DNA of 64,000 bases, from positions 130,665 to 194,664 of the forward strand of contig CAVVTV010000025.1 of the NCBI GenBank assembly GCA_963751215.1, written 5' to 3'. The notes beneath the pieces were generated by a model. That model was not told where the DNA came from. It saw only the letters and a list, made by a program, of their open reading frames with translations, and searched no databases. Numbering within the stretch: the first letter of the stretch is position 1; every line of letters begins with the position of its first letter. Made by a program: the position numbers and the translations under genes. This DNA is from an uncultured Thermoleophilia bacterium (GTDB taxonomy: Bacteria > Actinomycetota > Thermoleophilia > UBA2241). Of the stretch, positions 10,649-54,035 are shown in pieces.

Positions 10649-11827
10649 ATGAGCACCAGACACACCGAGAAGCCACCTGCGCCGCTGGGGTACGGCCCCC
10701 CACGGACTCGTCTCGCCTTACGTCTGGCGCTCGTCTACGCCGCCGTGGCGTCGCTGTGGATACTCCTCTCCGACTCGGCCCTCGACGCACTGGGGCTGCC
10801 GCTGTCTGTGGAGCAGGAGCTCTCATCCCTTAAAGGCCTGGGTTTTGTGCTGGTCACGGCGGTGGTGCTCTATGTCTTCGTGAGCCGCTGGGTGAGGAGG
10901 CTGCGCGCGTCGCAGGAGCGGTACTGGCGCCTGTTCGAGAACGCCACCGAGGGCATCACCGTCTTCACCGTGGTGCGCGACCGGCAGGGCGCGCTGACCG
11001 ACCTTGTCGTTACCGACGTAAACTCCATCCAGCTAGAGCGCACCCAGCTCACGCGCGACCAGGTGGTCGGTCGCCGGATGACGCAGCAGCACGGCCCCGA
11101 CGAGCGCCTGCGCTCGTACTTCGATCTCGTCGCCAGCGCCGTGGCCGCGGGGCACCCCATAGAGTCTGAGCTGCGCGTGAGGTCGGTCGGAGCTCACGAG
11201 CTGCTCTCGGCGTATCCGTTCGAGCACGACCTGTGGGCGCTGGCCGCCCTGGACGTCACCCAGACACGCCGCGCCGAAGAGGATCTGCGCAAGCAGGAGG
11301 AGCACATCCGGCAGGCATACGTGGATGTGCTCGACGCGGTCACCGGCGGCAAGCTCATCCTCCTCACCGAGGAGGACCTGGCGGCCGAGCTCGGGGTGCC
11401 GCTCTGCATCCCTGCGCAGATCACCTCCGCGAAGCAGATGCCCGAGGCGCGCCGCCGCGTTTCGAAGGCGGCCCGGCAGAGTTTCCCCGGATGGACAGAG
11501 CTCACAGACCTTCTCAACCCCGCTTGTGAGGCCCTCGGCAACGCGCTCAAGCATGGCCACGGCGGAACCTACCAGGTGTACGCGAAGGACGGTCGCCTGC
11601 AGGTGGCGGTCAGCGACGATGGGCCGGGCATCGACTTCCGCACCCTGCCCAGGGCCGCGCTGGTGCCCGGCTTCTCCACCGCCGCGAGCCTGGGCATGGG
11701 CTTCACGATCATGCTCCAGCTCTGCGACCGCGTGCTCCTCAGCACGCGACCGGGGCGCACCGAGATCGTGCTCGAGGTGGCGGCCGGCAGCGCGGCCGCG
11801 CTGGAGATCGTCACGGCGCTCGCCTAG
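10649..11827 (+). CDS. Membrane-anchored PAS sensor protein with a C-terminal histidine-kinase-like ATPase (HATPase_c/RsbW-like) domain
   Basis: Two N-terminal TM helices are followed by a PAS-like segment (RYWRLFENATEGITVFTVVRDRQGALTDLVVTDVN). The C-terminus has N/G-box-like motifs (NALKHGHGG...VSDDGPGIDF...GMGFTIM). No H-box was recognised. Confidence 0.65.
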   Translation: MSTRHTEKPPAPLGYGPPRTRLALRLALVYAAVASLWILLSDSALDALGLPLSVEQELSSLKGLGFVLVTAVVLYVFVSRWVRRLRASQERYWRLFENATEGITVFTVVRDRQGALTDLVVTDVNSIQLERTQLTRDQVVGRRMTQQHGPDERLRSYFDLVASAVAAGHPIESELRVRSVGAHELLSAYPFEHDLWALAALDVTQTRRAEEDLRKQEEHIRQAYVDVLDAVTGGKLILLTEEDLAAELGVPLCIPAQITSAKQMPEARRRVSKAARQSFPGWTELTDLLNPACEALGNALKHGHGGTYQVYAKDGRLQVAVSDDGPGIDFRTLPRAALVPGFSTAASLGMGFTIMLQLCDRVLLSTRPGRTEIVLEVAAGSAAALEIVTALA

Positions 11828-11847: not shown

Positions 11848-12948
11848 ATGAACGCTCAACCTCGACCAGGGAGCTCCTCGCGGAGCCGGCGGCCCGGCGC
11901 CGGCGCGCTCCGCCTGCGCCGCGGCGCGGCGCGCACCCGCCTTGTGGGACGCCTGGGGCTGGCCCGGGCACGCGGCCGGCCTCACACGTTGAGCCACCTG
12001 GTCACCGGCCGCTGCAACGGCCGCTGCCGCACCTGCCTCTGGCGCGACCCCGGCCGTGACGAGCTCGACACGGCGACGGTCAGGTGGCTCTATCGCGAGG
12101 CCGGTAGAGCTGGCCTCGCACAGCTCGTGATGTGGGGTGGCGAGCCACTGCTCCGGCAGGATCTGCCGGAGCTCTTGCGCGCCGCCCGGCACGCCGGCCT
12201 GCTCACCACCCTCATCACCAACGGCTGGCTCATCGGCAAGCGTTGGCCCGAGTTGCGCGGTCATGTGGACGCGCTCATCCTCAGCCTCGACGACGTGGGT
12301 CCCGCCCACGACCGTTTGCGCGGCCTGCCCGGCCTCTACGAACGCCTGCAAGCCTTCGTCGACATGCTGGCCGACGACCCGCTACGCCCGACCCTGCTCG
12401 TGAACACCGTGCTCTCCAATCTCAACCGTGGGGCTTTGGAGCGCGTTGCGGCGGTGGCCGCGGACTGGCACGCGGGTCTGTACTTCTGCCCTATGGAGAC
12501 GGGCGCGGCGACCTCCGCCGGCATCGTGACGCCGCTCGCCGAGCTGGCGCTCTCGCCCGCGCAGCTGAGCGCCGTGGCCGGCACCGCGGCGGAGCTCAAG
12601 CGCGCTGGCTACCCCATCCTCGCCACCGCCGAGTACCTGGATCTGCTCGCCCGCGACCCGGATCTGCAGGGCTACACGTGCCGGGCGCCGGCCGCGCGGC
12701 TCACAGTGGCCGCCGACGGCACGGTGCGCGACTGCCTGCATAGCGACCGCCCGCTGGCCGACGTGGCCGCCCTGCGGGCCGCCCACGAGCCCCTCTCGCT
12801 GCTGTTCTCTCAGCCCCGATACCGTGCCATGACGGCGCAGGCGACGCACTGCCGCAAGTGCAACAACCCAGATGTCATCGAGCTGTCGTGGCTCTGGGAC
12901 CTGCGGCCGGCGATGCTTCGCAAAGTGCTGCAACTCAGCACCCTGTAG
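11848..12948 (+). CDS. Radical SAM enzyme with a C-terminal SPASM/twitch-like Cys-rich domain
   Basis: It has the CNGRCRTC (Cx3Cx2C) motif and GGEPLL, plus C-terminal cysteines (CRAPAARLTVAADGTVRDC...HCRKCNNPD). It is not HydE- or HydG-like in length or motifs. Confidence 0.75.
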   Translation: MNAQPRPGSSSRSRRPGAGALRLRRGAARTRLVGRLGLARARGRPHTLSHLVTGRCNGRCRTCLWRDPGRDELDTATVRWLYREAGRAGLAQLVMWGGEPLLRQDLPELLRAARHAGLLTTLITNGWLIGKRWPELRGHVDALILSLDDVGPAHDRLRGLPGLYERLQAFVDMLADDPLRPTLLVNTVLSNLNRGALERVAAVAADWHAGLYFCPMETGAATSAGIVTPLAELALSPAQLSAVAGTAAELKRAGYPILATAEYLDLLARDPDLQGYTCRAPAARLTVAADGTVRDCLHSDRPLADVAALRAAHEPLSLLFSQPRYRAMTAQATHCRKCNNPDVIELSWLWDLRPAMLRKVLQLSTL

Positions 12949-12977: not shown

Positions 12978-13994
12978 ATGGTCTCTCGTCCACAGATCGC
13001 CGCAAGCCTACGTGCGGGAGGAGCGCAAGTGACAGCGCCATTCGATCGTGTGCCGCGCACCCGTAACGCCGGCAGCCGCAATCCGTCACGCCTCGGCCTG
13101 ATCGCGCTCGCGGTCCTCGCTCTGATCTGGGGTTACAACTGGGTGGTCATGAAGGTCGGCTTGCAGTATTCGCAGCCATTCACCTTCGCGGCCCTGCGCA
13201 CCTTCGTCGGAGCTCTCAGTCTGCTGGCGCTGCTGGCGGTCTTGCGCCGCCCCTTCTGGCCCAAGGCGATCGTCTTCACCCTGCTCATCGGCCTTCTGCA
13301 GACTACCGGCTTTGCGGGCCTCATCATGTGGGCACTCGCCAAAGGTGGCGCGGGCGAGATTTCGGTGCTCACCTACACCATGCCTTTCTGGCTGCTGCTG
13401 ATGGCCCGGGCGTTTCTCGGCGAGAGACTGAGGGGGCTGCAGTGGCTGGCCGTCGGGGTGGCCTTTGTCGGCCTCTTGCTCGTGCTCGAACCCTGGCGAC
13501 TGCACGGTGCGTGGAGCAGCTTGATGGCGGTGCTGGCAGGCCTCTCGTGGGCGGCCAGCGCGATCGTCGTCAAGATGCTGCAGCGACGACACGCCGTAGA
13601 CCTGCTGTCACTCACCGCGTGGCAGATGCTGTTCGGGTCGCTCCCGCTGATCGTGGTCGCGCTGCTCACCTACACCGCACCGCCGGTGTGGACCGTCTCG
13701 TTCATCTCGGCCCTGGTCTACAACGTGTTTCTCGGCAACGCGCTCGCCTGGCTGTTGTGGCTCTACGCCCTCCGCGCGCTGCCCGCCGGGAGCGCCGGAA
13801 TGGGCACGTTGGCGATCCCGCTGATCGGTGTGGTTACCGCCTGGATCCAGCTCGGCGAGCGCCCCGGCGGCGCCGAGGCGCTCGGCATGGCGGGCATCAT
13901 CGGCGCTCTCTGCCTGCTCGCGCTGCTCGGCGCGCGCCGCCCGGCGATGGAGCACGTGACACGCGCCAGCCCACCGCCGGGGGAGAGCACCTGA
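12978..13994 (+). CDS. EamA/DMT family permease
   Basis: Ten predicted TM helices. LIALAVLALIWGYNWVVMKVGL is a typical EamA N-terminus. The start is probably an internal GTG/ATG downstream of 12978. Confidence 0.8.
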   Translation: MVSRPQIAASLRAGGAQVTAPFDRVPRTRNAGSRNPSRLGLIALAVLALIWGYNWVVMKVGLQYSQPFTFAALRTFVGALSLLALLAVLRRPFWPKAIVFTLLIGLLQTTGFAGLIMWALAKGGAGEISVLTYTMPFWLLLMARAFLGERLRGLQWLAVGVAFVGLLLVLEPWRLHGAWSSLMAVLAGLSWAASAIVVKMLQRRHAVDLLSLTAWQMLFGSLPLIVVALLTYTAPPVWTVSFISALVYNVFLGNALAWLLWLYALRALPAGSAGMGTLAIPLIGVVTAWIQLGERPGGAEALGMAGIIGALCLLALLGARRPAMEHVTRASPPPGEST

Positions 13995-14634: not shown

Positions 14635-15930
14635 CTAGGCCGGGCCGAGGTGCCTGCGGCGCAGCTCCTCCAGCTGCTTGGGGGAGAGAAACACGCAGTC
14701 ACCCCTGGCCGCCTCACCGGCGGCGACATCGTGGGCCAGCACCCGGCAACTGGGCGCGCCGCAGAGCCCGCAGTCCAGTCCCGGCAGGGTACCCGCGATG
14801 CGTTCCGCCTCCTTCACCCGCCGCACCCTCTCGCGCAGATCGCCCACCTTGGTGGTCGCGCGAGGCTCGAACGGACGCTCGGTGGAGTAGTCTTCTTGCG
14901 GGTAGCGACGCCACACCTCGGCCTCGGTCTCGAGGTCGGTCTCGGGGAGCTCCCTCACCAGGCTCTGCATCTTGGCCTGCGTCACGTAGAGGTTGTCGAC
15001 CGTAAGATTGCCGTTGGCGCAGCCGCCCCAGCAGGCGCTGCACTCCAGGAAGTCTATGTCTTTGAGCTTGCCCTTCTCGATGTCGTCGAAGACGCGCATC
15101 ACGTTGGGCAGCCCCGTCACCGACAGGTAGCGGTACCTGCTGAGCGTGCCGGCCAGCGGGCGTCGCGTAGACCAGCGCAGCATCCCCGCGGAACGCACGG
15201 GCGCCCAGGCGCAGTGAACGCCGGACTTCGCGACCCTACGCGCCCGGGCCAGCACCGTGTTGTACACCTGCGGAATGCCGATGGACCCGTCCAGGTAGCT
15301 CTTGCCACCTTCGGCCGGCTGCATGATGGAGACGGTCCGTGCCTGGCAGGGCGTGACGTAGATGGCGGCCACGTCTTCGGGCGCCACACCGCGCTCCAGC
15401 GCGAAGCGCCGCTTGACCTCGCGCCCGGCGATCTCGCGCGGAGGGTGCACGCGAATGAGCTGCTCCAGCATCCGCGGGTACGAGACCTGCATGAGCCGCA
15501 CCACCACGGGGCAGGTGATGGAGATGATGGGCCGCGGGCCACGCCAGGAGCCCACGAAATCGACGATCGCACGCGTCACGAGCTTCATCTCAACGCCGTA
15601 GTCCCACACGCTGTCGAAGCCCACGGCGAGCAGCCCCTCGGCGATGTGCTCAGGCCGTATCTCGCGCGGAAACTGGCCGAAGAGCACCGGCGAGGGCACC
15701 GCCACCTTGAGCGCGAAATGGTTGAACTCGTCCAGGGTCCGCGTGGTCGCCGTGATCGCCCCGCGCGAGCACGCGGTAAGGCACGAGCCGCAGTCGATGC
15801 ACAGCTCGCTCAGCACGCGCGCCTTGCCGTGCTTCACGCGAATCGCAAACGTGGGGCAGACCCGCATGCAAGCCAGGCAGCCGTTGCACACCGCGTCGGC
15901 TATGCGGAATCCATGCGTGTACTCAGCCAT
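14635..15930 (-). CDS. HydS-like putative sensory [FeFe]-hydrogenase homologue. It lacks a PAS domain and is the last gene of the redox operon.
   Basis: Two N-terminal ferredoxin-type motifs (CNGCLACMRVCP, CIDCGSCLTACS). The H-cluster-domain motifs are present in modified form: L1 ITCP has a single Cys where the proton-relay Cys of TSCCP is replaced, L2 is TPCQ, and L3 is ECSACWGGCANG. A C-terminal Cx2Cx4Cx16C motif (CGLCGAPSC-16-C) matches what is described for Thermotoga HydS. Confidence 0.75.
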   Translation of the reverse strand: MAEYTHGFRIADAVCNGCLACMRVCPTFAIRVKHGKARVLSELCIDCGSCLTACSRGAITATTRTLDEFNHFALKVAVPSPVLFGQFPREIRPEHIAEGLLAVGFDSVWDYGVEMKLVTRAIVDFVGSWRGPRPIISITCPVVVRLMQVSYPRMLEQLIRVHPPREIAGREVKRRFALERGVAPEDVAAIYVTPCQARTVSIMQPAEGGKSYLDGSIGIPQVYNTVLARARRVAKSGVHCAWAPVRSAGMLRWSTRRPLAGTLSRYRYLSVTGLPNVMRVFDDIEKGKLKDIDFLECSACWGGCANGNLTVDNLYVTQAKMQSLVRELPETDLETEAEVWRRYPQEDYSTERPFEPRATTKVGDLRERVRRVKEAERIAGTLPGLDCGLCGAPSCRVLAHDVAAGEAARGDCVFLSPKQLEELRRRHLGPA

Positions 15931-16363
15931 GCTCGTCCAGCTTGATCTTGCAGGTCACGACGGTGCCCTCACCTAGCTCTGAGCGGATACCGAACACGTC
16001 GGAGTTCTTCTGCACATTGGGCAGACCCATGCCGAAGCCGAAGCCCATCTCGCGCATCTCGTCGCTGGCGCTCGACCATCCCTCCTGCATGGCAAGCTCG
16101 AGGTCGGGGATGCCCGGGCCGTGGTCGGCCATCTCGATGCCGATGTCTTCGTCTGTGATCGCCAGGGTGAGCACCCCCTCGCGGGCGTACATCACCACGT
16201 TCATCTCGACCTCGAAGGCCACCACCACGGCGCGGCGGATGGTCTGCGGGTCGATCTCCAGGTCTTTGAGCAGCGTCTTGATCTCGGTCGACGTCTCGCC
16301 CGCCTTGTCGAAATCGAGGCCGTTCACCCGGTAGCAGCACGAGAGCAGCTCCTCGGCCATCAC
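15923..16363 (-). CDS. Histidine-kinase-like ATPase (anti-sigma-factor/RsbW-type HATPase_c) protein
   Basis: 146 aa with HGPGIPDLE...GFGFGMGLPNV G-box-like motifs. It shows ATGA-type overlaps with both neighbours. Confidence 0.8.
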   Translation of the reverse strand: MMAEELLSCCYRVNGLDFDKAGETSTEIKTLLKDLEIDPQTIRRAVVVAFEVEMNVVMYAREGVLTLAITDEDIGIEMADHGPGIPDLELAMQEGWSSASDEMREMGFGFGMGLPNVQKNSDVFGIRSELGEGTVVTCKIKLDEHG

Positions 16364-16701
16364 ATCGCCCCGTGCAGGCCGGCGACGTACAGGATGCCGC
16401 AGCTCTCGAACATGCCGAGGCAGGTCATGAGCACCGGGATGCCCTTCTCACGAGCGAGCTCTAGCACGCGCTCGGGCGGACGCTTGCCGCGCACGTACAC
16501 GATGGCGTGCACATCGGCCACCACGGCGGTGCGCACCGACTGGATGTTGGTGAGCCCGGTGAGCATCAAGGCGTGAGGCCGGTGAAAGGCGAGGATCTCG
16601 CTCATGCCGTCGGAGGCCACCACGGCCTCTATATCCACCTCGTGGTCGAGCGTCGTGAGCGGCTCGCAACACAGAGCCGCGGCGATCTCGTTCAGCCTCA
16701 T
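16360..16701 (-). CDS. DRTGG domain protein
   Basis: 113 aa with LMLTGLTNIQSVRTAVVADVHAIVYVRGK...GIPVLMT, typical of the DRTGG (CBS-associated) domain. Its start overlaps the NfnB-like stop (ATGA). Confidence 0.75.
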   Translation of the reverse strand: MRLNEIAAALCCEPLTTLDHEVDIEAVVASDGMSEILAFHRPHALMLTGLTNIQSVRTAVVADVHAIVYVRGKRPPERVLELAREKGIPVLMTCLGMFESCGILYVAGLHGAM

Positions 16702-18131
16702 GGCCGGCAGCCTCCTTCGCGATCAGGCACGCGCCTGCGCAGCGCCGCGTCGATCGACAGCGCCGCCCGGCGCCCGGCGCCCATGGCACTGATGACCGTG
16801 GCTGCGCCGGTAACCACGTCTCCGCCGGCCCAGATATGCTCGCGTGACGTACGCCCGGTCTCTTCGTCAGCCACAATGGTACCGCGCGGGCCCACCTCCA
16901 GGCCCGGGGTCGTCGCGGGAATCAGCGGGTTGGGGCTGTTGCCGATGGCGCACACCGAGGCGTCTACAGACATCATGAACTCGGAGCCCGCGATCTCTAT
17001 GGGCCGGCGGCGGCCGGAGGCATCGGGAGTACCCAGCTCCATGCGGCGGCACTCCATGGCGCGCAGCCAGCCCCGGTCGTCGCCGATGAGGCGCACCGGC
17101 AAGGTGAGGAAGTCGAAGATCACGCCCTCCTCCTCGGCGTTCTCCACCTCCTCGAGGCGCGCCGGAAGCTCGTCGCGGCTGCGCCGGTACACGATGTGTA
17201 CCTCCTCGGCGCCCAGACGCAGCGCGGTGCGGGCCGAGTCCATGGCCACGTTGCCGCCGCCGAACACGGCCACCTTCGCCGCCCGCTTGAGCGGCGTGTC
17301 CCAGGCGGGAAAGCGAAAGCCGCGCATGAGGTTGCAGCGCGTGAGGTACTCGTTCGCGGAGTACACGCCGTTCAGGTTCTCCCCCGGGATCTCGAGAAAC
17401 CACGGCAGGCCGGCGCCGGCGCCCACGAACGCCGCGTCGAACGATTCGAGCAACCGGTCGAGGGTGCGTGTCTTGCCGGCCACGAAGTCAAGGCGCAGCT
17501 CCACCCCCAGGCTGCGCACGTAGTCGATCTCGCGGCGCACGATGGCCTTTGGCAGGCGAAACTCCGGGATGCCGTAGGTGAGCACGCCTCCCGCCTCGTG
17601 CAGAGCCTCGAACACGGTCACCTGGTACCCCTGCCCGGCGAGGTCGGCGGCCACCGTAATGCCGGCCGGTCCCGAGCCGACCACGGCCACCCGGCGGCCG
17701 TTGGCGGGCGGCTGCGGGGGCGGCTGCGCCGCCCCCTCGGCCGCCTCCCAGTCGGCCAGGAAGCGTTCCAGACGGCCGATGGCGAGCGGCTCCCCCTTCT
17801 TGCCCAGCAAGCAGAGCTTCTCGCACTGCTCCTCCTGCGGACACACGCGGCCGCAGACCGCCGGCAGCGCGTTGGTCTCCTTGACCTTCTTGATGCCGGT
17901 CGCGAAGTCTCCCTCGGCGATGCAGGCGACGAAAGCCGAGATGTCGACGCCCACCGGGCAGCCCTGGCTGCAAGCGGGCTTCTTGCAGGCCAGGCAGCGC
18001 GCCGCCTCCTCCCGCGCGAGCTCGGGCGAGTAGCCCAGCGCCACCTCGTCGAAGTTGCGCACACGCGCGCCCGGCTCCTGCTTCGGCATGGGCCGTCTGG
18101 CCGTTCTGATTCTGCCGCCCACTCGCGTCAT
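16698..18131 (-). CDS. GltD/SudA/NfnB-like subunit: NAD(P)H-binding, FAD, two [4Fe-4S] clusters
   Basis: CLACKKPACSQGCPVGVD and CGRVCPQEEQCEKLC Fe-S motifs, and two GxGxxG folds (VAVVGSGPAGITVA, VAVFGGGNVAMDSA). Start chosen at M42 of the ORF, which sits 4 nt after the NfnA-like stop. Confidence 0.85.
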   Translation of the reverse strand: MTRVGGRIRTARRPMPKQEPGARVRNFDEVALGYSPELAREEAARCLACKKPACSQGCPVGVDISAFVACIAEGDFATGIKKVKETNALPAVCGRVCPQEEQCEKLCLLGKKGEPLAIGRLERFLADWEAAEGAAQPPPQPPANGRRVAVVGSGPAGITVAADLAGQGYQVTVFEALHEAGGVLTYGIPEFRLPKAIVRREIDYVRSLGVELRLDFVAGKTRTLDRLLESFDAAFVGAGAGLPWFLEIPGENLNGVYSANEYLTRCNLMRGFRFPAWDTPLKRAAKVAVFGGGNVAMDSARTALRLGAEEVHIVYRRSRDELPARLEEVENAEEEGVIFDFLTLPVRLIGDDRGWLRAMECRRMELGTPDASGRRRPIEIAGSEFMMSVDASVCAIGNSPNPLIPATTPGLEVGPRGTIVADEETGRTSREHIWAGGDVVTGAATVISAMGAGRRAALSIDAALRRRVPDREGGCRP

Positions 18132-18135
18132 CCTC

Positions 18136-18969
18136 TCAGAAGTGAGACGCGCACCCGCTGCGCCGAAGAGGTTCGACCTCCTCCGGATTGTAGGTCTCTC
18201 GCCGCGCCAGGAACTCTTCCCAGTCCACCTCGTGGCCGTTGAACTCGGGGCCATCGACGCAGGCGAACCTGGTCTTGCCGGCCACCGTCAGGCGGCACAC
18301 CCCGCACATGCCCGTGCCGTCGATCATGATTGGGTTCATGCTCACGATCGTCGTGATGCCCAGGGGCCGAGTCTGCTCGCAGACCTTCATCATCTGGAAG
18401 GTGCACCCATGGGCGACGATGCGCTCCGGGTGAAGGTCTTCGAGCGCCAGGATCTCGGCCAGGCGCGTCACGTGCCCTTTGTAGCCCCGGCTGCCGTCGC
18501 GGGTGACCGTGATCACGCGCTCGGCGACACCGCGCAGCCGGTCTTCCCAGTACAAGAGATAGGCGCTACGCGCCTCCACGAGCACCACCACGCGGTTGCC
18601 GGCCGCCGCCATGGCGGCGGCGACGGGCTGGATACTGCCGATCCCGTAGCAGCCGCCGATGAGCAGCACCGTGCCGAAGTGCTCCACCACGGTCGCATTG
18701 CCCAGGGGACCGGCATACGACGGGATCTCGTCGCCGGCGTGCAGGCGCGCAAGCCGACCCGTGGAGGCGCCGACCTGCACGAAGATGGAGGTAACGGTTC
18801 CGGCGGCGGCGTCCCAGTCGGCCAGGGTGAGCGGAATGCGCTCGCCGCCCTCTCCCGGTCGCAGGATGATGAAGTTGCCGGGCCGCGCTGACTCGGCCAC
18901 CTCGGGCGCGTCCACGGTGAGCAGGTGCACGTTGGGCACGATCATGCGGCGTTCAACGACCCGGACCAT
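18136..18969 (-). CDS. SudB/NfnA/PyrK-like subunit: FAD plus C-terminal [2Fe-2S]
   Basis: Ferredoxin-NADP-reductase-like fold (MVRVVERRMIVPNVHLLTVDAPE...) ending in GTGMCGVCRLTVAGKTRFACVDGPEF, a Cys4 [2Fe-2S] motif. An alternative ATG lies at 18945. Confidence 0.8.
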   Translation of the reverse strand: MVRVVERRMIVPNVHLLTVDAPEVAESARPGNFIILRPGEGGERIPLTLADWDAAAGTVTSIFVQVGASTGRLARLHAGDEIPSYAGPLGNATVVEHFGTVLLIGGCYGIGSIQPVAAAMAAAGNRVVVLVEARSAYLLYWEDRLRGVAERVITVTRDGSRGYKGHVTRLAEILALEDLHPERIVAHGCTFQMMKVCEQTRPLGITTIVSMNPIMIDGTGMCGVCRLTVAGKTRFACVDGPEFNGHEVDWEEFLARRETYNPEEVEPLRRSGCASHF

Positions 18970-21496
18970 GCTCCCTCCCCGAGTGAGTGGAGGATCGCCG
19001 GCGCCGGCCGGCGCCGGTGGCCCGCGCGCGCTCGCCGGCCCGGGCGTGCTCGCCGGCGCGCAGACGCACCTTCTGCGGTCCCGCCGGGCCCGGCCACCAA
19101 CGCGGCAGCACCATATACACAACGCCCCGCGGACAGTCGCGATCGGGGCGCGCAACGAGCACGAGATCGCGCTCCGCCAAGCCGACCGTCACAAGACCGT
19201 CCGGCGCCGCGCCGAGGCGCGCCAGGTCGTCTGGGTGAATGCGCAGCCCCTCCTCGAGGCGCAGCTCTCCGAGGCCCTCGACAACGCCGGCCAGATCGAC
19301 ACCGCGGTGAGCGAACGCCGTGCGCTCGGCCACCAGAACGTAGCGCCGCCCGCGGCGCGCGGTGTCTTGCGCCGGCTCCGCCGCCCTGCCGGCCGGCGCG
19401 CTCGCCACGGCCGGCGCGGTCATCCGGGCCGCTTCGCCGGCCGCCCCCAGCGGCACCATGCGGCGCGGCGCGCGGTCGCGCTCGGCGGGAAAGGCCGGCA
19501 CCTCGGCGCGCATGGCCTCTCGCACGGCGCCGGCGTCGCGGTACTGCAAAGCGGGGTGTCCCAAGCACGCCGCGAGGCTCGAGAAGATCCACCAGTCGGG
19601 CTGCGCAGCCTTGCTCGCGCCGCACGCGCGCAGCCGCTCGAGGCCGCACACCTCCTGCACCCGGCCCTCGAGGTTGGTCAGAGTGCCGTCGGCCTCCGCA
19701 AACGAGGCCGCGGGCAGAAACGCATCCACGGCAAAGGGTGGCAGGTACATGTCTTGGGCGATCACGTAGTCACAGTCGGGGCGTGTCGCGAACGGCGCTG
19801 CCCCGACGAGGTACAGCACCCTCGGGCAACGGCCCGCGCGGAGCTGCGCCAGGTCGAAGCCCCGGTTCGCCACGCGCGAGCCCGCCCCTGCTCGCGGGCT
19901 CGGCGCCGCCCGCGGACCGGGCCACACCTCACTCAGCCCGCCGAGCTCCAGCACGCCACGCGTATTGGCGCCATTCACCAGCGGCAAGACGCTCGTGCCC
20001 TCACGCGTGGCCACGCTCTCCAGCTTGGCCACCAGCTCCGCCGCCCCCGCGCCGGCGAAGACCCGCGGCCCCACCACCACAGCCAGCGGGGCGCCCTCCA
20101 CCGTACCCAGGGTCTCCGTCAGGGCGATGGCCTCGCTACCCGCCGCAGGACGCAGCCAGCGGTCGGCCGCCCGGGCAAGGTTCGACTCGCGAGCATCTAC
20201 CACCACCAGGCGCGCGCCATCACGCAGCGCGCGCCTGACCTGCACCCCGACCACCGAGAACGAGAACCGCGAGTCGAGCCCCGCGACCACCACCGTGGCC
20301 GCCCGACGAACCGCCAGTATGGACACGGGCAGCGCGAACAGGCGCGACCACAGATGCACGCCACCGGCAAGGTCGTCGCGGGCGGTGGAGTCGACGCCGC
20401 CGCGCAGACCTGCTCGCACCAGTCGTTGGGCCGCATACACCGCCTCGTTCGTGAGATCGCCGGAGACCAGCATCAGCAGCTCCTCCGGGGCCACGTCGGC
20501 CAGCCTCGCGCTCACCTCCGCGAGGACCTCGTCCCAGCTTGTGACGCGCAAGCTGGCGCCACGACGCAGCATGGGCTCACGGGCGCGGGAATGATGGTGG
20601 GTCACTTCCGGCAGGCAGAAGCGCCCTCGCACGCAGAGCTGGCCGTCGTTCAGGGCCGCGTCGCGCGCGCCGCTCACCGACGAAAGACGGCCGTCTCGGT
20701 GAGCCAGCCGCACACGGCAGCCGAGGCTGCAGAACGGGCAGGTGGAAATCTCCTGGCCGTCGGGCGTGCCGTCCCACTTGGACACCTTGTCGGCGAGCGC
20801 CCCCGTGGGGCACACCGAGACGCAGGCCCCGCAGAACTCGCAGCCGGCCTGCGCGTGCGAATCACCGAAGGCCGGCCCCACCAGCGTCTTGGGGCCGCGG
20901 TACTTGAAAGCGAGCACCGCGGCCCCCCGCACCTCCTGGCACATGCGCACGCAGCGACCGCACAGGATGCAAAGGTTGTAGTCGCGGTCGAAGAACGGGT
21001 CGTCGTGCTCCACGCTCAGCCCCAGGTAGGAGATGGGGTAGGGGATGCCGGCCACGCCGACGTGGTCCGCGACCACCTGCAACTCGCAGTCGCCGTCTTT
21101 GGGACAGTTGCCGCACCCGGTAGAGACTCCGGCCTTGCGGATCGTCTTCTGGGTGCGCCGGCACTCCTCCCTCTCGTCGCAGACCAGACAACTGGAGGGG
21201 TGCTTGGAGAGGATGAGCTGAAGGATCTCGCGGCGCATCTCGCGCAGGGTCACCGTGTCGGTCGTCACTCGCATGCCCTCGGCAGCCAGCGTGCTGCAGG
21301 CCAGCGGGTAGCCGCGCAGGCCCGAGATCTCGACCATGCACAGGCGGCAGGCGCCGAACGGTGAGAGCTCCTCGTGAGAGCAAAGGGACGGCACATATGC
21401 TCCGGCGAGCTCCGCGGCGCGCAACACGGTGACTCCCTCCGGCACCGAGACGAGGCGATGATCGACCGTCAGATGCAGACGGGTCTCAGAGCCCAT
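18953..21496 (-). CDS. NuoG/FdhA-like Fe-S subunit with a molybdopterin-oxidoreductase (MopB) domain that appears non-catalytic
   Basis: Start at ORF residue 190 (MGSETRLHLTVDHRLVSVPEGVTVL). It has an N-terminal 2Fe-2S ferredoxin fold, a His/Cys cluster, two 4Fe-4S motifs, a MopB Cys motif (STCPFCSLGCRV...C) and a C-terminal molybdopterin-dinucleotide-binding barrel (IHPDDLARLGAAPDGLVTV). At the position aligned by eye to the FDH active site (CCARVUHGP) it reads STARDDLAGGV, so there is no Cys/Sec and no His. There is no in-frame TGA. Confidence 0.8.
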   Translation of the reverse strand: MGSETRLHLTVDHRLVSVPEGVTVLRAAELAGAYVPSLCSHEELSPFGACRLCMVEISGLRGYPLACSTLAAEGMRVTTDTVTLREMRREILQLILSKHPSSCLVCDEREECRRTQKTIRKAGVSTGCGNCPKDGDCELQVVADHVGVAGIPYPISYLGLSVEHDDPFFDRDYNLCILCGRCVRMCQEVRGAAVLAFKYRGPKTLVGPAFGDSHAQAGCEFCGACVSVCPTGALADKVSKWDGTPDGQEISTCPFCSLGCRVRLAHRDGRLSSVSGARDAALNDGQLCVRGRFCLPEVTHHHSRAREPMLRRGASLRVTSWDEVLAEVSARLADVAPEELLMLVSGDLTNEAVYAAQRLVRAGLRGGVDSTARDDLAGGVHLWSRLFALPVSILAVRRAATVVVAGLDSRFSFSVVGVQVRRALRDGARLVVVDARESNLARAADRWLRPAAGSEAIALTETLGTVEGAPLAVVVGPRVFAGAGAAELVAKLESVATREGTSVLPLVNGANTRGVLELGGLSEVWPGPRAAPSPRAGAGSRVANRGFDLAQLRAGRCPRVLYLVGAAPFATRPDCDYVIAQDMYLPPFAVDAFLPAASFAEADGTLTNLEGRVQEVCGLERLRACGASKAAQPDWWIFSSLAACLGHPALQYRDAGAVREAMRAEVPAFPAERDRAPRRMVPLGAAGEAARMTAPAVASAPAGRAAEPAQDTARRGRRYVLVAERTAFAHRGVDLAGVVEGLGELRLEEGLRIHPDDLARLGAAPDGLVTVGLAERDLVLVARPDRDCPRGVVYMVLPRWWPGPAGPQKVRLRAGEHARAGERARATGAGRRRRSSTHSGREHGPGR

Positions 21497-23396
21497 CAGA
21501 CGCTCCCGACTCAATGCGGATGGCGTCGCCGGCGACGGCGTCGAAACGGCAGATCTCGTAGCAGGAGCGGCACTTGATGCACTTCTCCGGGTCGAGATTG
21601 TGAACCTCGGCGCGTGGTCCAGTGATGGCTCCGGTAGGGCACACCTGCACGCAGCGCTGGCAGCCGGTGCACCGCTCAGGCATGATCCGGTACACGACGA
21701 GATCACGGCAGACCGCCGCCCGGCAGCGTCTCTCGACGATGTGCTCCACGAACTCGGCGCGGAAGTACTTGAGCGACGAGAGCACCGGGTTGGGCGCCGT
21801 CTGCCCGAGGCCGCAGAGGGAGCTGGCCTTGACCACACCGGCGAGCTTCTCGAGACGCGCGAGGTCGGTGAGCTGCGCCTCGCCGGAGCAGATCGCCGTG
21901 AGAATCTCTGCGAGGTGCCCGGTGCCGATGCGACACGGCACGCACTTGCCACATGATTCATCTTGGGTGAAGCCGAGGAAGTAGCGCGCCATGTCGACCA
22001 TGCACGTGTCGCGGTCGAGCACGATGAGCCCGCCCGAGCCCATGATGGAGCCGGCCGCGGCAAGGCTCTCGTAGTCGATGGGGATGTCGAGAAACTCCTC
22101 CCCGAGGCAGCCCCCCGACGGGCCCCCGGTTTGCACGGCCTTGAAGTCTTTGGCGAGCCCGCCGCCGATATCGTAGACCACCTGGCGCAGCGTCATGCCG
22201 AACGGGATCTCTATGAGTCCCGTGCGGCGCACCTTGCCGACCAGGCTGAAGGTCTTCGTGCCCTTCGACGTCTCGGTGCCGAAGCTCGCATACCACTCGG
22301 GCCCGCGGGCGAGGATCGCCGGCAGGGTCGCGAGCGTTTCCACGTTGTCGATAATCGTGGGCTCGCCGTGCAGACCTGCGACGGCGGGAAACGGGGGCCG
22401 CGTGCGCGGCATCCCGCGACGACCCTCGAGGCTCGCGATGAGAGCCGTCTCTTCACCGCAGACAAAGGCTCCCGCCCCTTCCTGGAGGCTGATGTCGAAC
22501 GAGAAGTCGCTGCCCAGGATCCTGTCGCCGAGCAGGCCGAGCTTGCGCATGGCGGCCAGCGCCGAGCGCAGGCGCTGGATCGCCAGCGGGTACTCGGCCC
22601 TGATGTAGATATGACCGTGTGCGGCGCCGATGGCGTAGCCGGCGATCAGCATGCCCTCGAGCACCTCGTGCGGGTCGCCCTCGATGAGGGAGCGGTTCAT
22701 GAAGGCGCCGGGGTCGCCCTCGTCGGCGTTGCAGATGAGGTGGCGCGCGTCGCTCTCGGTCTGCCGGCAGAAGGTCCATTTCTGCCAGGTAGGAAAGCCC
22801 GCCCCTCCACGGCCGCGCAACCCCGCGCGCCGAACGGCGTCGATCACGTCCTGCCACGGCATGTCGAGGCAGTGCGCGAACGCCGCATACCCGCCCCGGG
22901 CCAGATAGTGATCGATCTGCTCGGGATCGATGATGCCGCAGTTGCGCAGCACGATGCGCTTCTGGCGACTGAGCATCGGGTGGTCCGCGAGACTCGGTAC
23001 GCCGGCGCCATCGTACCCGCCGGCGCCCTCGTACTCGCCATCGCCAAGGTACCCCACGAGATGCCGCCGAGGCACCTCACCGCCGCGCAGAGCGTCGAGC
23101 GTGTCGGCGGCCAGGTCGCCCGTCATGTTGGAGTAGCTCAGACGAGGCCTGCCGGGGAGCTGCACGTCAAGGAGCGGCTCCAGGTAGCAGAGCCCCAGGC
23201 AGCCGACCGCCACGATCTCGGCGTCGACCTGCCGTTCCTCTAGATACCGGCGCACCCCGGCGAGCACCTCCAGGGCGCCCGCCGCCAGCCCGCACGACCC
23301 CATGCCGAGATAGACGACCGGGCGCCCGCTGGACGTGAGAGCCCGCCAGCGCGCTCCGGCTCTACGGCGGCGACGGTCAAGGGCGGGGGCGAGCAT
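21486..23396 (-). CDS. NuoF/HydB-like flavoprotein subunit: NAD(H)-binding, FMN, Fe-S; N-terminal thioredoxin-like 2Fe-2S and C-terminal 2x[4Fe-4S] extensions
   Basis: GAGAFVCGEETALIASLEGRRG is the FMN/NADH site. An N-terminal NuoE-like domain is present (GMGSCGLAAG...VGCLGLCYLEP). The C-terminal Cys motifs are CTGCQRCVQVCP and CIKCRSCYEICR. This architecture is as in HydB/HndC-type subunits. Confidence 0.9.
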   Translation of the reverse strand: MLAPALDRRRRRAGARWRALTSSGRPVVYLGMGSCGLAAGALEVLAGVRRYLEERQVDAEIVAVGCLGLCYLEPLLDVQLPGRPRLSYSNMTGDLAADTLDALRGGEVPRRHLVGYLGDGEYEGAGGYDGAGVPSLADHPMLSRQKRIVLRNCGIIDPEQIDHYLARGGYAAFAHCLDMPWQDVIDAVRRAGLRGRGGAGFPTWQKWTFCRQTESDARHLICNADEGDPGAFMNRSLIEGDPHEVLEGMLIAGYAIGAAHGHIYIRAEYPLAIQRLRSALAAMRKLGLLGDRILGSDFSFDISLQEGAGAFVCGEETALIASLEGRRGMPRTRPPFPAVAGLHGEPTIIDNVETLATLPAILARGPEWYASFGTETSKGTKTFSLVGKVRRTGLIEIPFGMTLRQVVYDIGGGLAKDFKAVQTGGPSGGCLGEEFLDIPIDYESLAAAGSIMGSGGLIVLDRDTCMVDMARYFLGFTQDESCGKCVPCRIGTGHLAEILTAICSGEAQLTDLARLEKLAGVVKASSLCGLGQTAPNPVLSSLKYFRAEFVEHIVERRCRAAVCRDLVVYRIMPERCTGCQRCVQVCPTGAITGPRAEVHNLDPEKCIKCRSCYEICRFDAVAGDAIRIESGASDGL

Positions 23397-23880
23397 CTAG
23401 CACCCCCTGGAGCTTGAGCACACTCATCTGCCCATAGATGATGTCGTCCAGCGTGATCACCGGGGCCAGGGCGCAGCACCCGAGGCAGGCCACGCGCTCC
23501 AGGTCGAACTCCCCGTCGGACGTGGTCTCGCCGGCCTCCACACCCAGCCTGCGCGCGGCCGTGTCGAGCATCTGCACACCCCCCTTGACGTGGCAGGCTG
23601 TGCCGAGGCAAATACGCAGGCGATGACGGCCGGGCGGGCAGAAGCGAAACTGCGAGTAGAAGGTGGCGACGCCGAAGACCTCGCCCTCCGACATCCGCAA
23701 CCAGCGCGCGATGCGCCGCACCGCGTCCGGCGAGAGATACCCGAGAGCCGCCTGCGCCTTCTGCAGCGCCGGCACGAGATCCGCGCGATGGCCGGCGAAC
23801 CCGCGCATGATGCCCGGCCAGGGATCGCCGTGTGACGACCCGCCCCGGGCGCCGGCCGGCTCTCGAGCCGACGCCTCCAT
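23377..23880 (-). CDS. NuoE/HydC-like thioredoxin-like [2Fe-2S] subunit
   Basis: CLGTACHVKGG...CLGCCALAPV is the Cys4 NuoE motif. The gene overlaps the nuoF-like start by 20 nt. Confidence 0.85.
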   Translation of the reverse strand: MEASAREPAGARGGSSHGDPWPGIMRGFAGHRADLVPALQKAQAALGYLSPDAVRRIARWLRMSEGEVFGVATFYSQFRFCPPGRHRLRICLGTACHVKGGVQMLDTAARRLGVEAGETTSDGEFDLERVACLGCCALAPVITLDDIIYGQMSVLKLQGVLDARPRP

Positions 23881-23889
23881 GGCAACCTC

Positions 23890-24228
23890 CTACCTCAGGC
23901 CGAGCTCGACCAGGCGCACGGCGTACGACCAGGTGTCGTCCATGGTTGTGAAGAGCGCGATGCCCACTCTGTCGGCGAGGCTCACGACATCGTCGGCCGG
24001 ACGCTTGTCGTGGGCGAACACGACCATGGCGGCATCGACCACGTTGGCCGCCGCGATGAGGTTCTTATGCGTCTGTAGAGTCACCAGTAGGCTGCCGCTC
24101 TGAGCACCCGTGATGATGTCCGACGCCATGTCGGACACATACACCCCCGAGACGTCGGCATCTTCCTGCACATTGAGCGCTTCGAGCCCTGTTCTCTCGA
24201 CGATCTCGGAGATTCTCACGGTGCCCAC
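23890..24228 (-). CDS. DRTGG domain protein (second copy)
   Basis: 112 aa with LLVTLQTHKNLIAAANVVDAAMVVFAHDKRPADDVVSLADRVGIALFTT, similar to the 16360-16701 product. Confidence 0.7.
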   Translation of the reverse strand: MGTVRISEIVERTGLEALNVQEDADVSGVYVSDMASDIITGAQSGSLLVTLQTHKNLIAAANVVDAAMVVFAHDKRPADDVVSLADRVGIALFTTMDDTWSYAVRLVELGLR

Positions 24229-24258
24229 CTCCTTGCTCGGCTTGACCGACGCGTGCTG

Positions 24259-24777
24259 TTACAGCTCTGTGAGCCCAGCGTCGGCGATGACGACGCCCGC
24301 GCAGCAGTCGATGTCGCTGCACATGCTGCACGGCACTACCACGATCTTCTTGTGCGCCGAGCGCAGGCGCTGGTTGAAGTACTCGCCCAGCGCCGCGACC
24401 CCCTCGTCGCTCACACAGTGACCCGCGGAGTGGCTAGAGTCGGCACAGAGTGCCACGTAGACCGAGGTGCCCTTGCCCATCTCGAGAGCCATGCAGCCGA
24501 CTTGGCACTCGGGGTCTTCGCAGGTCGACAGCATGAGACCCGTCATGTCGCTGAGGTCGACCACCGTGCCGCAGATCTCGCAGCGCAGGCCGAAGGCGAC
24601 CGCCTGAGAGCTTGAGAGGTACCTCCACATGTGCTCACCCTGACGGTACTCGTCCATGGGCGCGGCCGGTTCCGTGGAGAAGAACGAGCCGCGGGCGCCG
24701 CAGTGGTAGCAGCCTTCGACGACCAGATACCCGCTGCGGACGTTGGTCATCGACCAGTGATGGGGGCAGGTGCTCAT
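24259..24777 (-). CDS. Cys-rich protein of unknown function (14 Cys in 172 aa), first gene of the redox operon
   Basis: The ATG at 24777 is preceded by GGAGGA. It carries CxxC pairs (CYHC, CEIC), CEDPECQVGC, and CSMCSDIDCC. No family was recognised. Confidence 0.5.
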   Translation of the reverse strand: MSTCPHHWSMTNVRSGYLVVEGCYHCGARGSFFSTEPAAPMDEYRQGEHMWRYLSSSQAVAFGLRCEICGTVVDLSDMTGLMLSTCEDPECQVGCMALEMGKGTSVYVALCADSSHSAGHCVSDEGVAALGEYFNQRLRSAHKKIVVVPCSMCSDIDCCAGVVIADAGLTEL

Positions 24778-26672: not shown

Positions 26673-27236
<564 letters not shown>

Positions 27237-27319
27237 GACGTCAGCCTCCCTTTGCGTAGCGGTATCACACTTCGCTGAGATACCCGCTACGGCGAGGGGG
27301 TAGCCGCGAGATCGCGGAT

Positions 27320-32500: not shown

Positions 32501-32563
32501 CAGACACCCTCCGTGCTTGACGTAAGTCACGGGCCGCTCGCAAGAAGAGCCCGCGGCGGCCGG

Positions 32564-33721: not shown

Positions 33722-33880
33722 CGCCCCCCTCCTCGGTCACTGGCCATGCAGCCCGGCACCGCGCAGTGTTAATCGCACATAGTACTGGCGAGCTTATTCT
33801 CGGCACGAATGGAGCAACACTTGAATACGACGAGGTGGCGTATATACCTGCGCGAATCGCCTGCCAGGACGGCTTCATTC

Positions 33881-44005: not shown

Positions 44006-44479
44006 GGAGCTCCTCCCCTACCGGTGTGTGGGGTTGTCTGCGGCTGGCTTGCCAGCGGGCCTGACCGCGGCTGGCTTTGACGTAGCTGGCTTGCCGGCGG
44101 CGGACGGCCGCACGCGCCGGTGACGCGAACGGTCGGTCGCCCGGGCTGGACGGGCGCCGTCTACACTTCAGTCAAACGGAAGTGCCTGAGCAATACAAGC
44201 CGCCTCGGCGATGCGGCCACGGATCGGCCCCCAGGGCCCGCCCGGCGACCACCGCTCAATGAACTCGTCGCCACGGCGCACGGCCTCTTGAGCCGGTTGA
44301 ACGCCGACGCCCCCGTGTCGGACAGCAGTCGCCTGCTCACACAGCGGCGATCCCGCCGGCTGCCCCACGCCAGCCCACGCGCTCTGGAGTGTGACTAGCA
44401 CACGGCGACCCACGCGAGGGGGCCGGGGCGGGAGGGTCTGCACGGCCCTCCATCCCCGGCCCCCGCCTCCGCCCGCCGT

Positions 44480-53581: not shown

Positions 53582-53590
53582 ACTAGCTTC

Positions 53591-54034: not shown

Positions 54035-54035
54035 T

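Follow-up and report, generated by a model that had tools for sequence, protein, structure and literature searches.

A conserved gene cluster linking an NfnAB pair to a BfuABC core, a candidate sensor-controlled transhydrogenase of uncultured anaerobes

The 64,000 nucleotides of contig CAVVTV010000025.1 analysed here, which we call the window, come from an uncultured Thermoleophilia bacterium and carry on their minus strand an operon of ten genes (g1 to g10 in the order of transcription; Table 1), whose five central members combine a complete BfuABC set with a complete NfnAB-type pair. The reading that we favour, at a probability of roughly 0.55, is that the products of these five genes would form a Bfu complex of Type 3 and work as a transhydrogenase between NADH, ferredoxin and NADP(H), with NfnAB as its third-substrate module and with a sensor of H2 or of the redox state in control. 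An earlier note, made from the letters and the translated open reading frames (ORFs) of the same DNA, had described ten tightly packed minus-strand genes between 24777 and 14635, comprising a Bfu-like core, a NuoG/FdhA-like protein with a degenerate molybdopterin site, and a SudAB/Nfn-type module in the place that the catalytic partner has in other Bfu enzymes. Much of this picture survives. The ten frames lie where the note had placed them, the domain calls for the subunits were all right when each gene product was run against Pfam and NCBIfam, and the degenerate site, the core with its expected ligands and the position of the Nfn-type module are documented below. The suggestion that this is neither a standard Fdh-Bfu nor a StnABC cluster also holds, and no paper describing the combination was found, as the note had surmised when it knew of no characterised example. 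Finally, the search for co-occurring neighbours that it had proposed shows that the core is not peculiar to this genome: it is widespread in bacterial and archaeal phyla.

The Bfu core

The Bfu family is defined by its conserved BfuBC core (Schut et al., 2022; PMC9304861), where BfuB is made of the NuoF FMN domain, an SLBB domain, the NuoF [4Fe-4S] domain and a ferredoxin-type 4Fe-4S domain, and where BfuC carries a NuoE-type [2Fe-2S] cluster. The products of g4 and g3 have this domain content, the SLBB domain of BfuB (PF10531) being a weak match of 20.7 bits, under the cut-off; the best NCBIfam matches of BfuC are NuoE, HoxE and the gamma subunit of formate dehydrogenase (FDH). In the same work, bifurcating and non-bifurcating NuoF homologues are told apart by the ligands of cluster B2 and the C-terminal clusters B3 and B4, which the latter homologues lack, and by residues of the NADH/FMN pocket. 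The window BfuB has the B1 ligands C482/C485/C488/C528, flanked by the three cysteines and one histidine of the [2Fe-2S] cluster B2 (C465/H552/C558/C563), which are conserved in 96-100% of 77 homologues. Its B3 and B4 ligands make two CxxCxxCxxxC motifs (C576-C616), conserved in 81-86% of the same homologues. The motifs 'DEGDPGAFM' and 'GAGAFVCGEETAL' are those of the bifurcating class (Schut et al., 2022, Supp. Figs 9-10) and, in the NADH/FMN pocket, 'ICNADEGDPGAFMNRS' and 'QEGAGAFVCGEETALI' fit the bifurcating-type patterns DEGDPGAFM and GAGAFVCGE[ES][TS]AL (Supp. Fig. 10). At the uncertain N-terminal B5 [2Fe-2S] site, within a thioredoxin-like region, there are three conserved cysteines only (C35, C66, C70), and some characterised members of the family have no cluster in this part of BfuB. 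By the published signatures, and leaving this B5 site apart, the window BfuB is predicted to be of the bifurcating type.

BfuA, the product of g5, has its best overall match in the formate dehydrogenase subunit FdsA of Rhodobacter capsulatus (6tg9, 239 bits), and its closest solved chains are FdsA (6tg9/9wxb), NiFe-BfuA (7t2r), Csac NfnA (9bov) and StnC (8oh5). The segment 'ARVCHS' of FdsA, which holds the catalytic Cys386-His387, aligns to 'ARDDLA' in BfuA, so that Cys-His has become Asp-Leu. There is no in-frame TGA that could encode selenocysteine; in the absence of Cys/Sec-His the protein cannot be a formate dehydrogenase, and that function is ruled out. The Molydop_binding domain reaches 17.5 bits only, under the cut-off. 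Having lost this site, BfuABC is by itself left without a third substrate. Within the same family alignment intact FDH sites do occur, as 'CH' at two loci (L037 and L047) and, at three others (L022, L025, L063), as His preceded by an in-frame stop that most likely reads as selenocysteine. Pfam matches and motifs give BfuA a [2Fe-2S] cluster, a cluster motif with a His ligand, two clusters of the ferredoxin type and the [4Fe-4S] cluster of MopB; the A3 and A5 positions, by which Schut et al. (2022) define Type 3, are thus present. There is more. At residues 99-137 (window 21088-21202, minus strand) a HxxxCxxCx5C motif is followed, 15 residues further, by CxxCx5C ('HPSSCLVCDEREEC...CGNCPKDGDCELQ'), whereas FdsA and NiFe-BfuA show the motif only once. 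The seven ligand residues of this doubled motif are all invariant in an alignment of 24 sequences and they are found in nearly all of 67 BfuA homologues, NfnAB-linked or not; the addition may be an extra Fe-S or Zn site.

The NfnAB pair

The product of g7 aligns over its full length to NfnB of Thermotoga maritima (4ylf_B, 548 bits, about 63% identity) and to NfnL of Pyrococcus furiosus (5jca_L). It has the NfnL-type motif 'CPQEEQCE' of a cluster held by three cysteines and a glutamate ('VCPQEEQCEKLC'), where NfnA of Thermococcus sibiricus has 'VCPA--FCEEEC', as well as the 'EFRLPK' motif, and it keeps the NADP(H) and FAD motifs. At the thresholds used, no residue separates Bfu-linked NfnB proteins from canonical ones. 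In a rough neighbour-joining tree the two characterised NfnB proteins fall outside a broad Bfu-linked group and the extra copies of loci L082 and L083 are nested inside it, so that, as far as such a crude tree can tell, the two kinds are not cleanly separated. Its partner, encoded by g6, scores 255 bits against P. furiosus NfnS (5jca_S) and 210 bits against T. maritima NfnA, and retains the Asp/3-Cys [2Fe-2S] motif 'DGTGMCGVCR...FAC' of the FAD plus [2Fe-2S] type. With these matches, the operon has a complete NfnAB-type pair besides BfuABC.

The NfnA subunit, by contrast with NfnB, differs from its canonical counterparts. When 64 NfnA-like sequences from the sampled loci were aligned with the two crystallised NfnA proteins, the glycine-rich dinucleotide-binding loop of the window protein (residues 103-110; window 18640-18663, minus strand) appeared as 'GGCYGIG', in place of the canonical, NAD(H)-binding GGGVG[IV]A seen in T. 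maritima, in P. furiosus, in the extra stand-alone nfnAB of L082 and L083, and in the Chloroflexota loci L037, L039 and L032. The GGC[Y/F]G form was present in 56 NfnA sequences, all from loci that contain BfuA. A script confirmed BfuA directly upstream for 47 of them, the other nine falling outside its distance or coverage thresholds, and among these 47 adjacent BfuA proteins 46 have no FDH site, the one with an intact site being that of L047. Two further motifs, 'ADWD' and 'TRDG..KGH', go with the GGC[Y/F]G variant. Judged from these motifs, the Bfu-linked NfnA is a subfamily of its own, and GGC[Y/F]G is potentially a diagnostic motif for annotating this class of enzymes. Three loci (L082, L083, L065) have a second nfnAB pair beside the Bfu-linked one, and the extra NfnA of L082 and L083 is of the GGGVG type. 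The presence of a second, canonical nfnAB in the same loci, together with the restriction of GGC[Y/F]G to loci with BfuA, argues for a non-redundant, co-evolved partner of the Bfu core. Likewise, both NfnA types coexist in one genome and the loop co-varies with the loss of the Mo site, which speaks against taking the Bfu-linked pair for an ordinary Nfn that merely happens to lie nearby.

Synteny and gene fusions

BfuA homologues number more than 2000 at E <= 1e-20. One genome per species was scanned with an alignment of the close BfuA homologues, which gave 80 loci, 68 of them evaluable in that they have enough downstream sequence, and these were searched by tblastn with the ten window proteins; the sample was selected by similarity to BfuA, so that the frequencies given here are not unbiased. 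NfnA and NfnB come directly after the BfuA homologue in 49 of the 68 evaluable loci, with BfuC-BfuB upstream in most of the 49 (these were not counted separately). The lineages that carry this core belong to more than ten bacterial and archaeal phyla. They include Actinomycetota (Actinomycetes/Thermoleophilia), Planctomycetota, Aminicenantes, Zixibacteria, Bacteroidota, Cloacimonadota and WOR-3/TA06, and also Desulfobacterota (Deltaproteobacteria, Syntrophorhabdus among them), Chloroflexota (Dehalococcoidia/Anaerolineae), Thermoplasmatota and Thorarchaeota. The nearest relatives are metagenome-assembled genomes (MAGs) of uncultured Actinomycetes/Thermoleophilia, with 62-67% identity in BfuA and up to 86% in NfnB. 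In Methanotrichaceae, loci have NfnA only, or NfnB on the opposite strand. Flanking genes vary from one locus to the next, which makes the cluster itself the conserved unit.

Gene fusions tie the parts more closely. In two lineages BfuA and NfnA are a single polypeptide (P0049, 1131 residues, in L001; P0082, 1153 residues, in L084), with NfnB encoded directly next in both, and the fusion attaches NfnA to the C-terminal end of BfuA's dead FdhF-like domain. Some loci depart from the common plan. A Chloroflexi MAG (L037; JACQTR010000081.1, 6850-14400) has a BfuA with an intact FDH site upstream of NfnA of the canonical GGGVG type and of NfnB, and a Methanotrichaceae locus (L047, 6594-10200) has such an intact BfuA upstream of a GGCFG-type NfnA, NfnB being on the opposite strand. 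These two arrangements suggest that the BfuA form with a dead MopB domain evolved from an association of Fdh-Bfu with NfnAB. In four loci of Dehalococcoidia/Chloroflexi (L032, L044, L060, L063) an extra GltD-like gene, about 40-43% identical to g7, lies between BfuB and BfuA; it comes on top of the downstream NfnA-NfnB and makes for Bfu clusters of even greater complexity.

A proposed transhydrogenase and its alternatives

In the scheme that we propose, the five central gene products would assemble into one soluble multi-cofactor Bfu complex of the HydABC type, belonging to 'Type 3' in the classification of Schut et al. (2022). NAD(H) and ferredoxin would be dealt with by BfuB and BfuC, which would make up the bifurcating core with its FMN and Fe-S clusters. 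BfuA would be a pure Fe-S wire, its formate dehydrogenase-like domain serving as a scaffold only, and the third substrate would be the business of the separate NfnAB-type heterodimer, with NADP(H) presumably bound at the FAD of NfnB. The net reaction would be NADH + reduced ferredoxin + NADP+ <-> NAD+ + oxidised ferredoxin + NADPH, much as for NfnABC/Stn, though carried out by unfused parts and with NfnA in addition. Such wiring has a precedent in the characterised Stn/NfnABC enzymes, where a BfuA chain and a BfuBC core can be supplied by a FAD domain of the GltD type. The accessory cassette would sense H2 or the redox state and tune the enzyme post-translationally, possibly by nucleotide-dependent binding or by phosphorylation in the manner of a partner switch.

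Several points weigh against this transhydrogenase. The formation of a complex is argued from synteny and from fusions. With its altered loop, NfnA may have no NAD(H) bound at this site, or may bind some other ligand instead, which would change the reaction. NfnB looks like the canonical bifurcating type, with its Glu-ligated cluster and no distinguishing residue; NfnAB could then act alone, and a second bifurcating core would seem redundant for the same net reaction. Why a bifurcation-competent NfnB should have been retained together with NfnA is not explained by a transhydrogenase. At L037 and L047, an intact FDH site lies beside NfnA- and NfnB-like genes, and co-expression of two enzymes that share NADH and ferredoxin is a viable account of these loci. 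Lastly, the hydEFG maturase genes are missing from the roughly 40 ORFs of the window that were screened by Pfam and NCBIfam searches, which also revealed no hydA or fdhA (stretches such as 32.5-38.6 kb and 44-51 kb lie outside this screen).

The retention of NfnB would make sense if bifurcation took place at two sites, the FAD of NfnB and the flavin/Fe-S site of BfuBC being both active, in series through BfuA. For example, the low-potential branch of NfnB might feed BfuA rather than free ferredoxin, giving an NADPH:NADH:ferredoxin stoichiometry unlike that of Nfn or Stn and, possibly, electrons of unusually low potential. We hold such a tandem to be improbable, while recognising what speaks for it: NfnB keeps every feature of a bifurcating NfnL, including the Glu-ligated proximal cluster, where StnC/NfnA(BC) has a Lys and has lost bifurcation; BfuB also keeps every feature of its bifurcating type; a canonical nfnAB is kept besides in some loci, which hints at a reaction outside the repertoire of ordinary Nfn; and BfuA has an extra invariant CxxCx5C. 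Two bifurcating modules in one complex have a precedent in Bam-Bfu (BamBCDEFGHI), for which Schut et al. (2022) proposed a Bfu core together with a second, unrelated bifurcating flavoprotein module; there, however, the module is HdrA, not NfnAB, the substrate is benzoyl-CoA, and bifurcation itself was not demonstrated. The case for the tandem is purely inferential, a back-of-envelope redox balance leaves only some wirings thermodynamically feasible at physiological potentials, and the altered loop of NfnA can be read equally well as a loss of function at that place. It is possible to go one step further and to imagine a 'double bifurcator' gated post-translationally by an H2-sensing M2e hydrogenase, by way of the SpoIIAB-like kinase, the DRTGG proteins and the Cys/His-rich metalloprotein, with the GGC[Y/F]G loop of NfnA as a docking or alternative-ligand site in place of one for NAD(H). 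This is a speculation to which we would give little credence, and yet, if true, it would provide what Nfn and Stn do not deliver, another redox stoichiometry or an output of very low potential.

Just as doubtful as the tandem is the idea that the operon merely co-expresses two independent enzymes, an ordinary NfnAB and a BfuABC that either finds its partner elsewhere or works as an NADH:ferredoxin oxidoreductase, both being placed in one operon since they draw on common pools of NADH and ferredoxin. That NfnB is indistinguishable from canonical NfnB would fit, and so would the Chloroflexi locus L037, where BfuA with its intact FDH site precedes a canonical-type NfnAB and where a coupling from formate to NADH and ferredoxin, and on to NADPH, is sensible. 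Against it stand the two independent BfuA-NfnA fusions, the co-variation of the NfnA signature with linkage to Bfu at loci whose stand-alone copies remain canonical, and the want of a catalytic site in BfuA with no partner gene conserved in the variable flanks. BfuABC devoid of a third substrate would, besides, have no thermodynamically sensible reaction.

The accessory cassette

The earlier note had taken the ten genes as a single redox operon. Ten genes there are, translationally coupled in the window, but they do not make one unit of ten subunits: a five-gene core is accompanied by a cassette of five accessory genes (g1, g2, g8, g9, g10), which elsewhere is absent, placed upstream or divergent. 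L001, a Phycisphaerales chromosome (L002, CP070744.1) and several more MAGs have the complete order too. The cassette is split around the core, as in the window, in L001, L002, L005, L008, L011 and probably L012, where the contig begins within g2. It stands together upstream, as g1-g2-g8-g9-g10, in seven loci (L016, L018, L020, L023, L029, L043, L057), is divergently transcribed in L009, and is absent within 10 kb in L007, in L034 and in most Chloroflexota and archaea. The five genes are thus a separable block moving as a unit.

The first member, g1, represents a family of about 172 residues with twelve invariant Cys/His residues and without a Pfam model, for which a search of the PDB found no structural neighbour. 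The 16 loci with g1, among those sampled, all have it together with the DRTGG/GHKL/HydS cassette, and g2 orthologues always adjoin g1. The DRTGG domain of g8 is fused to NfnB in L001 (582-residue product), and this puts the domain on the enzyme itself, which argues for a post-translational rather than a transcriptional control. In Zixibacteria and Bacteroidota loci the matches to g8 and g9 are contiguous in single ORFs of 265-307 residues, consistent with a putative DRTGG-GHKL fusion. The closest solved chains to the product of g9 are those of SpoIIAB, the anti-sigma-F kinase (1th8 and 1l0o), which has the same length. The note had named a DRTGG and histidine-kinase-like ATPase pair as a companion of operons for bifurcating [FeFe]-hydrogenases and NAD-dependent formate dehydrogenases. 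This is confirmed in part, for the ATPase, since a histidine-kinase-like ATPase flanks TamHydS, the M2e hydrogenase of Thermoanaerobacter mathranii (PMC8163306); as for DRTGG, no description of a link to hydrogenase or Bfu operons was found in the open-access and preprint literature.

Hydrogenases of the M2e type, or group D, have been described (PMC8163306) as having an H-domain without the equivalent of C299 and with M353 replaced by Ser or Thr, two N-terminal [4Fe-4S] clusters, a C-terminal Cx2Cx4Cx16C motif and no PAS domain. The product of g10 has two N-terminal [4Fe-4S] clusters (Fer4 matches at residues 11-60), an H-domain, and at residues 382-414 a C-terminal PF04060 domain with Cx2Cx4Cx16C ('CGLCGAPSCRVLAHDVAAGEAARGDC'); Pfam gave no match to PAS. 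All four H-cluster cysteines are kept, in 'ITCP', 'TPCQAR' and 'ECSACWGGC', the counterparts of TSCCP, MPCxxK and ExMxCxxGC in HydA chains, and the substitutions are C299 (the proton-transfer cysteine) to Thr, M353 to Thr, M497 to Ser and K358 to Arg, this last position having Arg in the actinobacterial clade and Lys elsewhere. In 20 orthologues, three of the H-cluster cysteines are present throughout and the equivalent of C499 is His in L020 and L029. By these hallmarks g10 would encode an M2e/group-D, putatively sensory, HydS. The one characterised M2e enzyme, TamHydS, has sensor-like properties and interconverts H+ and H2 reversibly and slowly (PMC8163306). The ORFs screened hold no copy of hydA; the claim that the operon has no catalytic hydrogenase cannot be asserted strictly, as g10 keeps its four H-cluster cysteines and an M2e enzyme does turn over H2, if slowly.

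It could even be that H2 is the third substrate: g10, which is translationally coupled to the rest of the operon, would dock on BfuA as a catalytic subunit, the Fe-S domains at its two ends could relay electrons, and the result would be an NAD(P)- and ferredoxin-linked bifurcating hydrogenase to which NfnAB adds an NADP coupling. The intact H-cluster cysteines and the reversible activity of TamHydS lend some colour to the idea, which is nevertheless the least likely of those considered here, for a HydS-like g10 is nearby in only 14 of the 49 core-positive loci, the other 35 having none within 10 kb of BfuA-NfnA-NfnB; g10 travels with the GHKL ATPase and DRTGG genes and not with BfuA, being divergent in L009; its proton-transfer cysteine and both flanking methionines are replaced, as they are in groups C and D, which are sensory; the C499 position is taken by His in two orthologues; and hydEFG were missing from the window ORFs screened.

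Comparison with known systems

The closest characterised relatives of the proposed transhydrogenase are NfnABC/StnABC of Sporomusa ovata, Caldicellulosiruptor saccharolyticus and Thermococcus sibiricus (8oh5, 9bov, 9n5u), which likewise associate a BfuBC-type bifurcating core with a NuoG-like BfuA whose FdhF-like domain is catalytically dead, and with a GltD/NfnB-type FAD domain that probably binds NADP(H); their chains are matched by g5 as well as by g7. Identity with a standard StnABC/NfnABC fails, however, on three defining features. In these enzymes the GltD domain is inserted in BfuA, in one polypeptide of about 960-1180 residues (residues 102-565 of StnC), whereas the window has a separate g7 and Pfam sees no Pyr_redox or Fer4_20 domain in g5. 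The FAD-proximal cluster has a Lys ligand there and the FAD is non-bifurcating, in contrast to the NfnL-type Glu form of the window NfnB. Finally, as the paper on the Stn structure points out, Stn has no homologue of NfnA and Nfn has none of HydBC, while the window cluster does have NfnA, fused to BfuA in some relatives. A HydS/GHKL/DRTGG cassette such as that of the window operon is not described for Stn either.

With NfnAB/NfnSL (T. maritima 4ylf, P. furiosus 5jca) the window pair has all Fe-S ligands in common, including the Asp-ligated [2Fe-2S] and the Glu-ligated [4Fe-4S] clusters. Canonical Nfn is a stand-alone heterodimer; the window NfnAB is linked to a Bfu core and its NfnA belongs to the subfamily with the altered loop and the 'ADWD' and 'TRDG..KGH' motifs. 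That this pair, too, should act as a free heterodimer is made less probable by the synteny and by the BfuA-NfnA fusions. Fdh-Bfu and NAD-dependent formate dehydrogenases, FdsABG of R. capsulatus among them, have the NuoE-NuoF-NuoG/FdhA gene order and the Fe-S domains in common with the window. They differ by the catalytic residues already discussed and, in R. capsulatus, by an FdsB of the non-bifurcating type where the window BfuB is predicted to be bifurcating. As to g10, it has in common with TamHydS the M2e hallmarks, the neighbouring histidine-kinase-like ATPase and a location in a Bfu-type operon, but HydS of T. mathranii accompanies a true bifurcating [FeFe]-hydrogenase, whereas the window operon has no catalytic HydA, and the literature on it does not discuss partners such as g1 or the DRTGG proteins, both present here. 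No class combining BfuABC with a separate NfnAB appears in Supplementary Table 1 of Schut et al. (2022), and no description of one was found in the open-access and preprint literature.

An unfused pair of comparable parts, SfrAB, would exist in Geobacter sulfurreducens. SfrA is reportedly NuoG/FdhA-like and without a functional Mo site, SfrB reportedly a GltD-like NADPH flavoprotein, and the two are reported to have been proposed to link NADPH to ferredoxin. SfrAB is not known to have either the NuoE/NuoF (BfuBC) core or NfnA. The reference for SfrAB is Coppi et al. (2007, Microbiology 153:3572).

Significance for bifurcation and annotation

Electron-bifurcating enzymes set the energetic limits of anaerobic life, and two transhydrogenase solutions, NfnSL on the one hand and NfnABC/Stn on the other, are currently treated as alternative and largely mutually exclusive. 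The window locus and dozens alike combine a complete NfnAB with a complete BfuABC, with a dedicated NfnA subfamily and with gene fusions. The building blocks were known before, as was the Bfu concept, and this locus is a single case among many, so that nothing here is categorically new; the architecture differs all the same from NfnABC/Stn (by the three features above) and from NfnSL (by the link or fusion to Bfu and by the NfnA subfamily). Questions follow for the field. Can two bifurcating sites operate in one complex? What docks on the FdhF-like domain of BfuA? What is the target of an M2e 'sensory' hydrogenase where there is no hydrogenase to regulate? The combination is common in uncultured anaerobes, and the metabolic reconstruction of many such lineages is affected, since the genes are now annotated as 'formate dehydrogenase', 'YjgC', 'glutamate synthase' or 'RnfB'. 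It is in electron bifurcation and in annotation that the interest of the cluster is real.

Gene layout and surroundings

Frames were chosen by ORF length, G+C content at third codon positions (GC3) and homology; GC3 is about 0.85-0.89 in a window of 69% GC. Six of the nine junctions from g1 to g10 are overlaps (4, 4, 8, 11, 17 and 20 nt) and three are gaps (4, 9 and 30 nt), and most of the starts are preceded by purine-rich, GGAGG-like Shine-Dalgarno sequences. The start of g1 is placed at 24777 (MSTC...) and not at 25095, as 28 homologues begin at the same residue.

Table 1. Genes of the window operon, with coordinates in the window, strand, predicted product and family matches
Gene	Coordinates	Strand	Product	Family matches
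g1	24259-24777	-	Conserved 172-aa Cys/His-rich protein, first gene of the operon; accessory cassette	No Pfam/NCBIfam family
g2	23890-24228	-	Small DRTGG-domain protein, accessory	PF07085, 21.8 bits, under cut-off
g3	23377-23880	-	BfuC, NuoE/HydC-like, thioredoxin-like [2Fe-2S]	PF01257 (2Fe-2S_thioredx), E = 1.4e-42
g4	21486-23396	-	BfuB, NuoF/HydB-like FMN/NAD(H) subunit, C-terminal 2x[4Fe-4S]	PF01512 (Complex1_51K), PF10589 (NADH_4Fe-4S), 2x PF00037 (Fer4)
g5	18953-21496	-	BfuA, NuoG/FdhA-like, 847 aa	Fer2_4, NADH-G_4Fe-4S_3, Fer4_Nqo3, Molybdop_Fe4S4, Molybdopterin
g6	18136-18969	-	NfnA/NfnS (SudB, PyrK-like)	DHODB_Fe-S_bind; NF004862, 327 bits
g7	16698-18131 (alternative start 18089)	-	NfnB/NfnL (SudA, GltD-like)	Fer4_20, Pyr_redox_2; TIGR01316, 566 bits, above cut-off
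g8	16360-16701	-	Second DRTGG-domain protein, accessory	PF07085, 28.5 bits
g9	15923-16363	-	146-aa single-domain GHKL ATPase, SpoIIAB-like, accessory	PF02518 (HATPase_c); TIGR01925 (anti-sigma F factor), E = 2.3e-10
g10	14635-15930	-	Putative M2e/group-D 'HydS' [FeFe]-hydrogenase, accessory	Fe_hyd_lg_C, PF04060

On its 5' side the operon is preceded by about 500 bp without a convincing gene and then by unrelated genes, with a DJ-1/PfpI gene at 26673-27251. On the 3' side lies a convergent EamA transporter gene (12978-13994, plus strand). Beyond it, a radical-SAM gene (11848-12948, plus strand) was considered as an adjoining hydE or hydG and rejected, as it matches SPASM-type families only. Next to this gene, still past the 3' end of the operon and on the opposite strand, 10649-11827 encodes a protein of 392 residues with a C-terminal RsbA/SpoIIAB-like HATPase_c_2 domain. 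A scan of the window for promoter and terminator consensus sequences was uninformative at 69% GC, and the window holds no rRNA gene, but only one for tRNA-Ala.

Elsewhere in the window, 42167-44017 (minus strand) encodes a protein resembling the alpha subunit of indolepyruvate/2-oxoacid:ferredoxin oxidoreductases (POR_N, TPP_enzyme_C and 2x[4Fe-4S]), consistent with a ferredoxin-based anaerobic metabolism of the host. Three consecutive large ORFs occupy 28981-33736 (minus strand), of which the first two (28981-30183 and 30125-32563) encode probable cell-surface proteins that have IPT/TIG and BNR/YCF48-like repeats, the third being 32564-33736. Finally, a stretch of lower GC (52000-56700; 0.63 against 0.69) adjoins the tRNA-Ala gene (56608-56683, minus strand) and may be an integrated island; it holds a RES toxin/Xre-MbcA-ParS antitoxin pair (52429-53342, minus strand), a MarR regulator and a PRiA4_ORF3-like protein.

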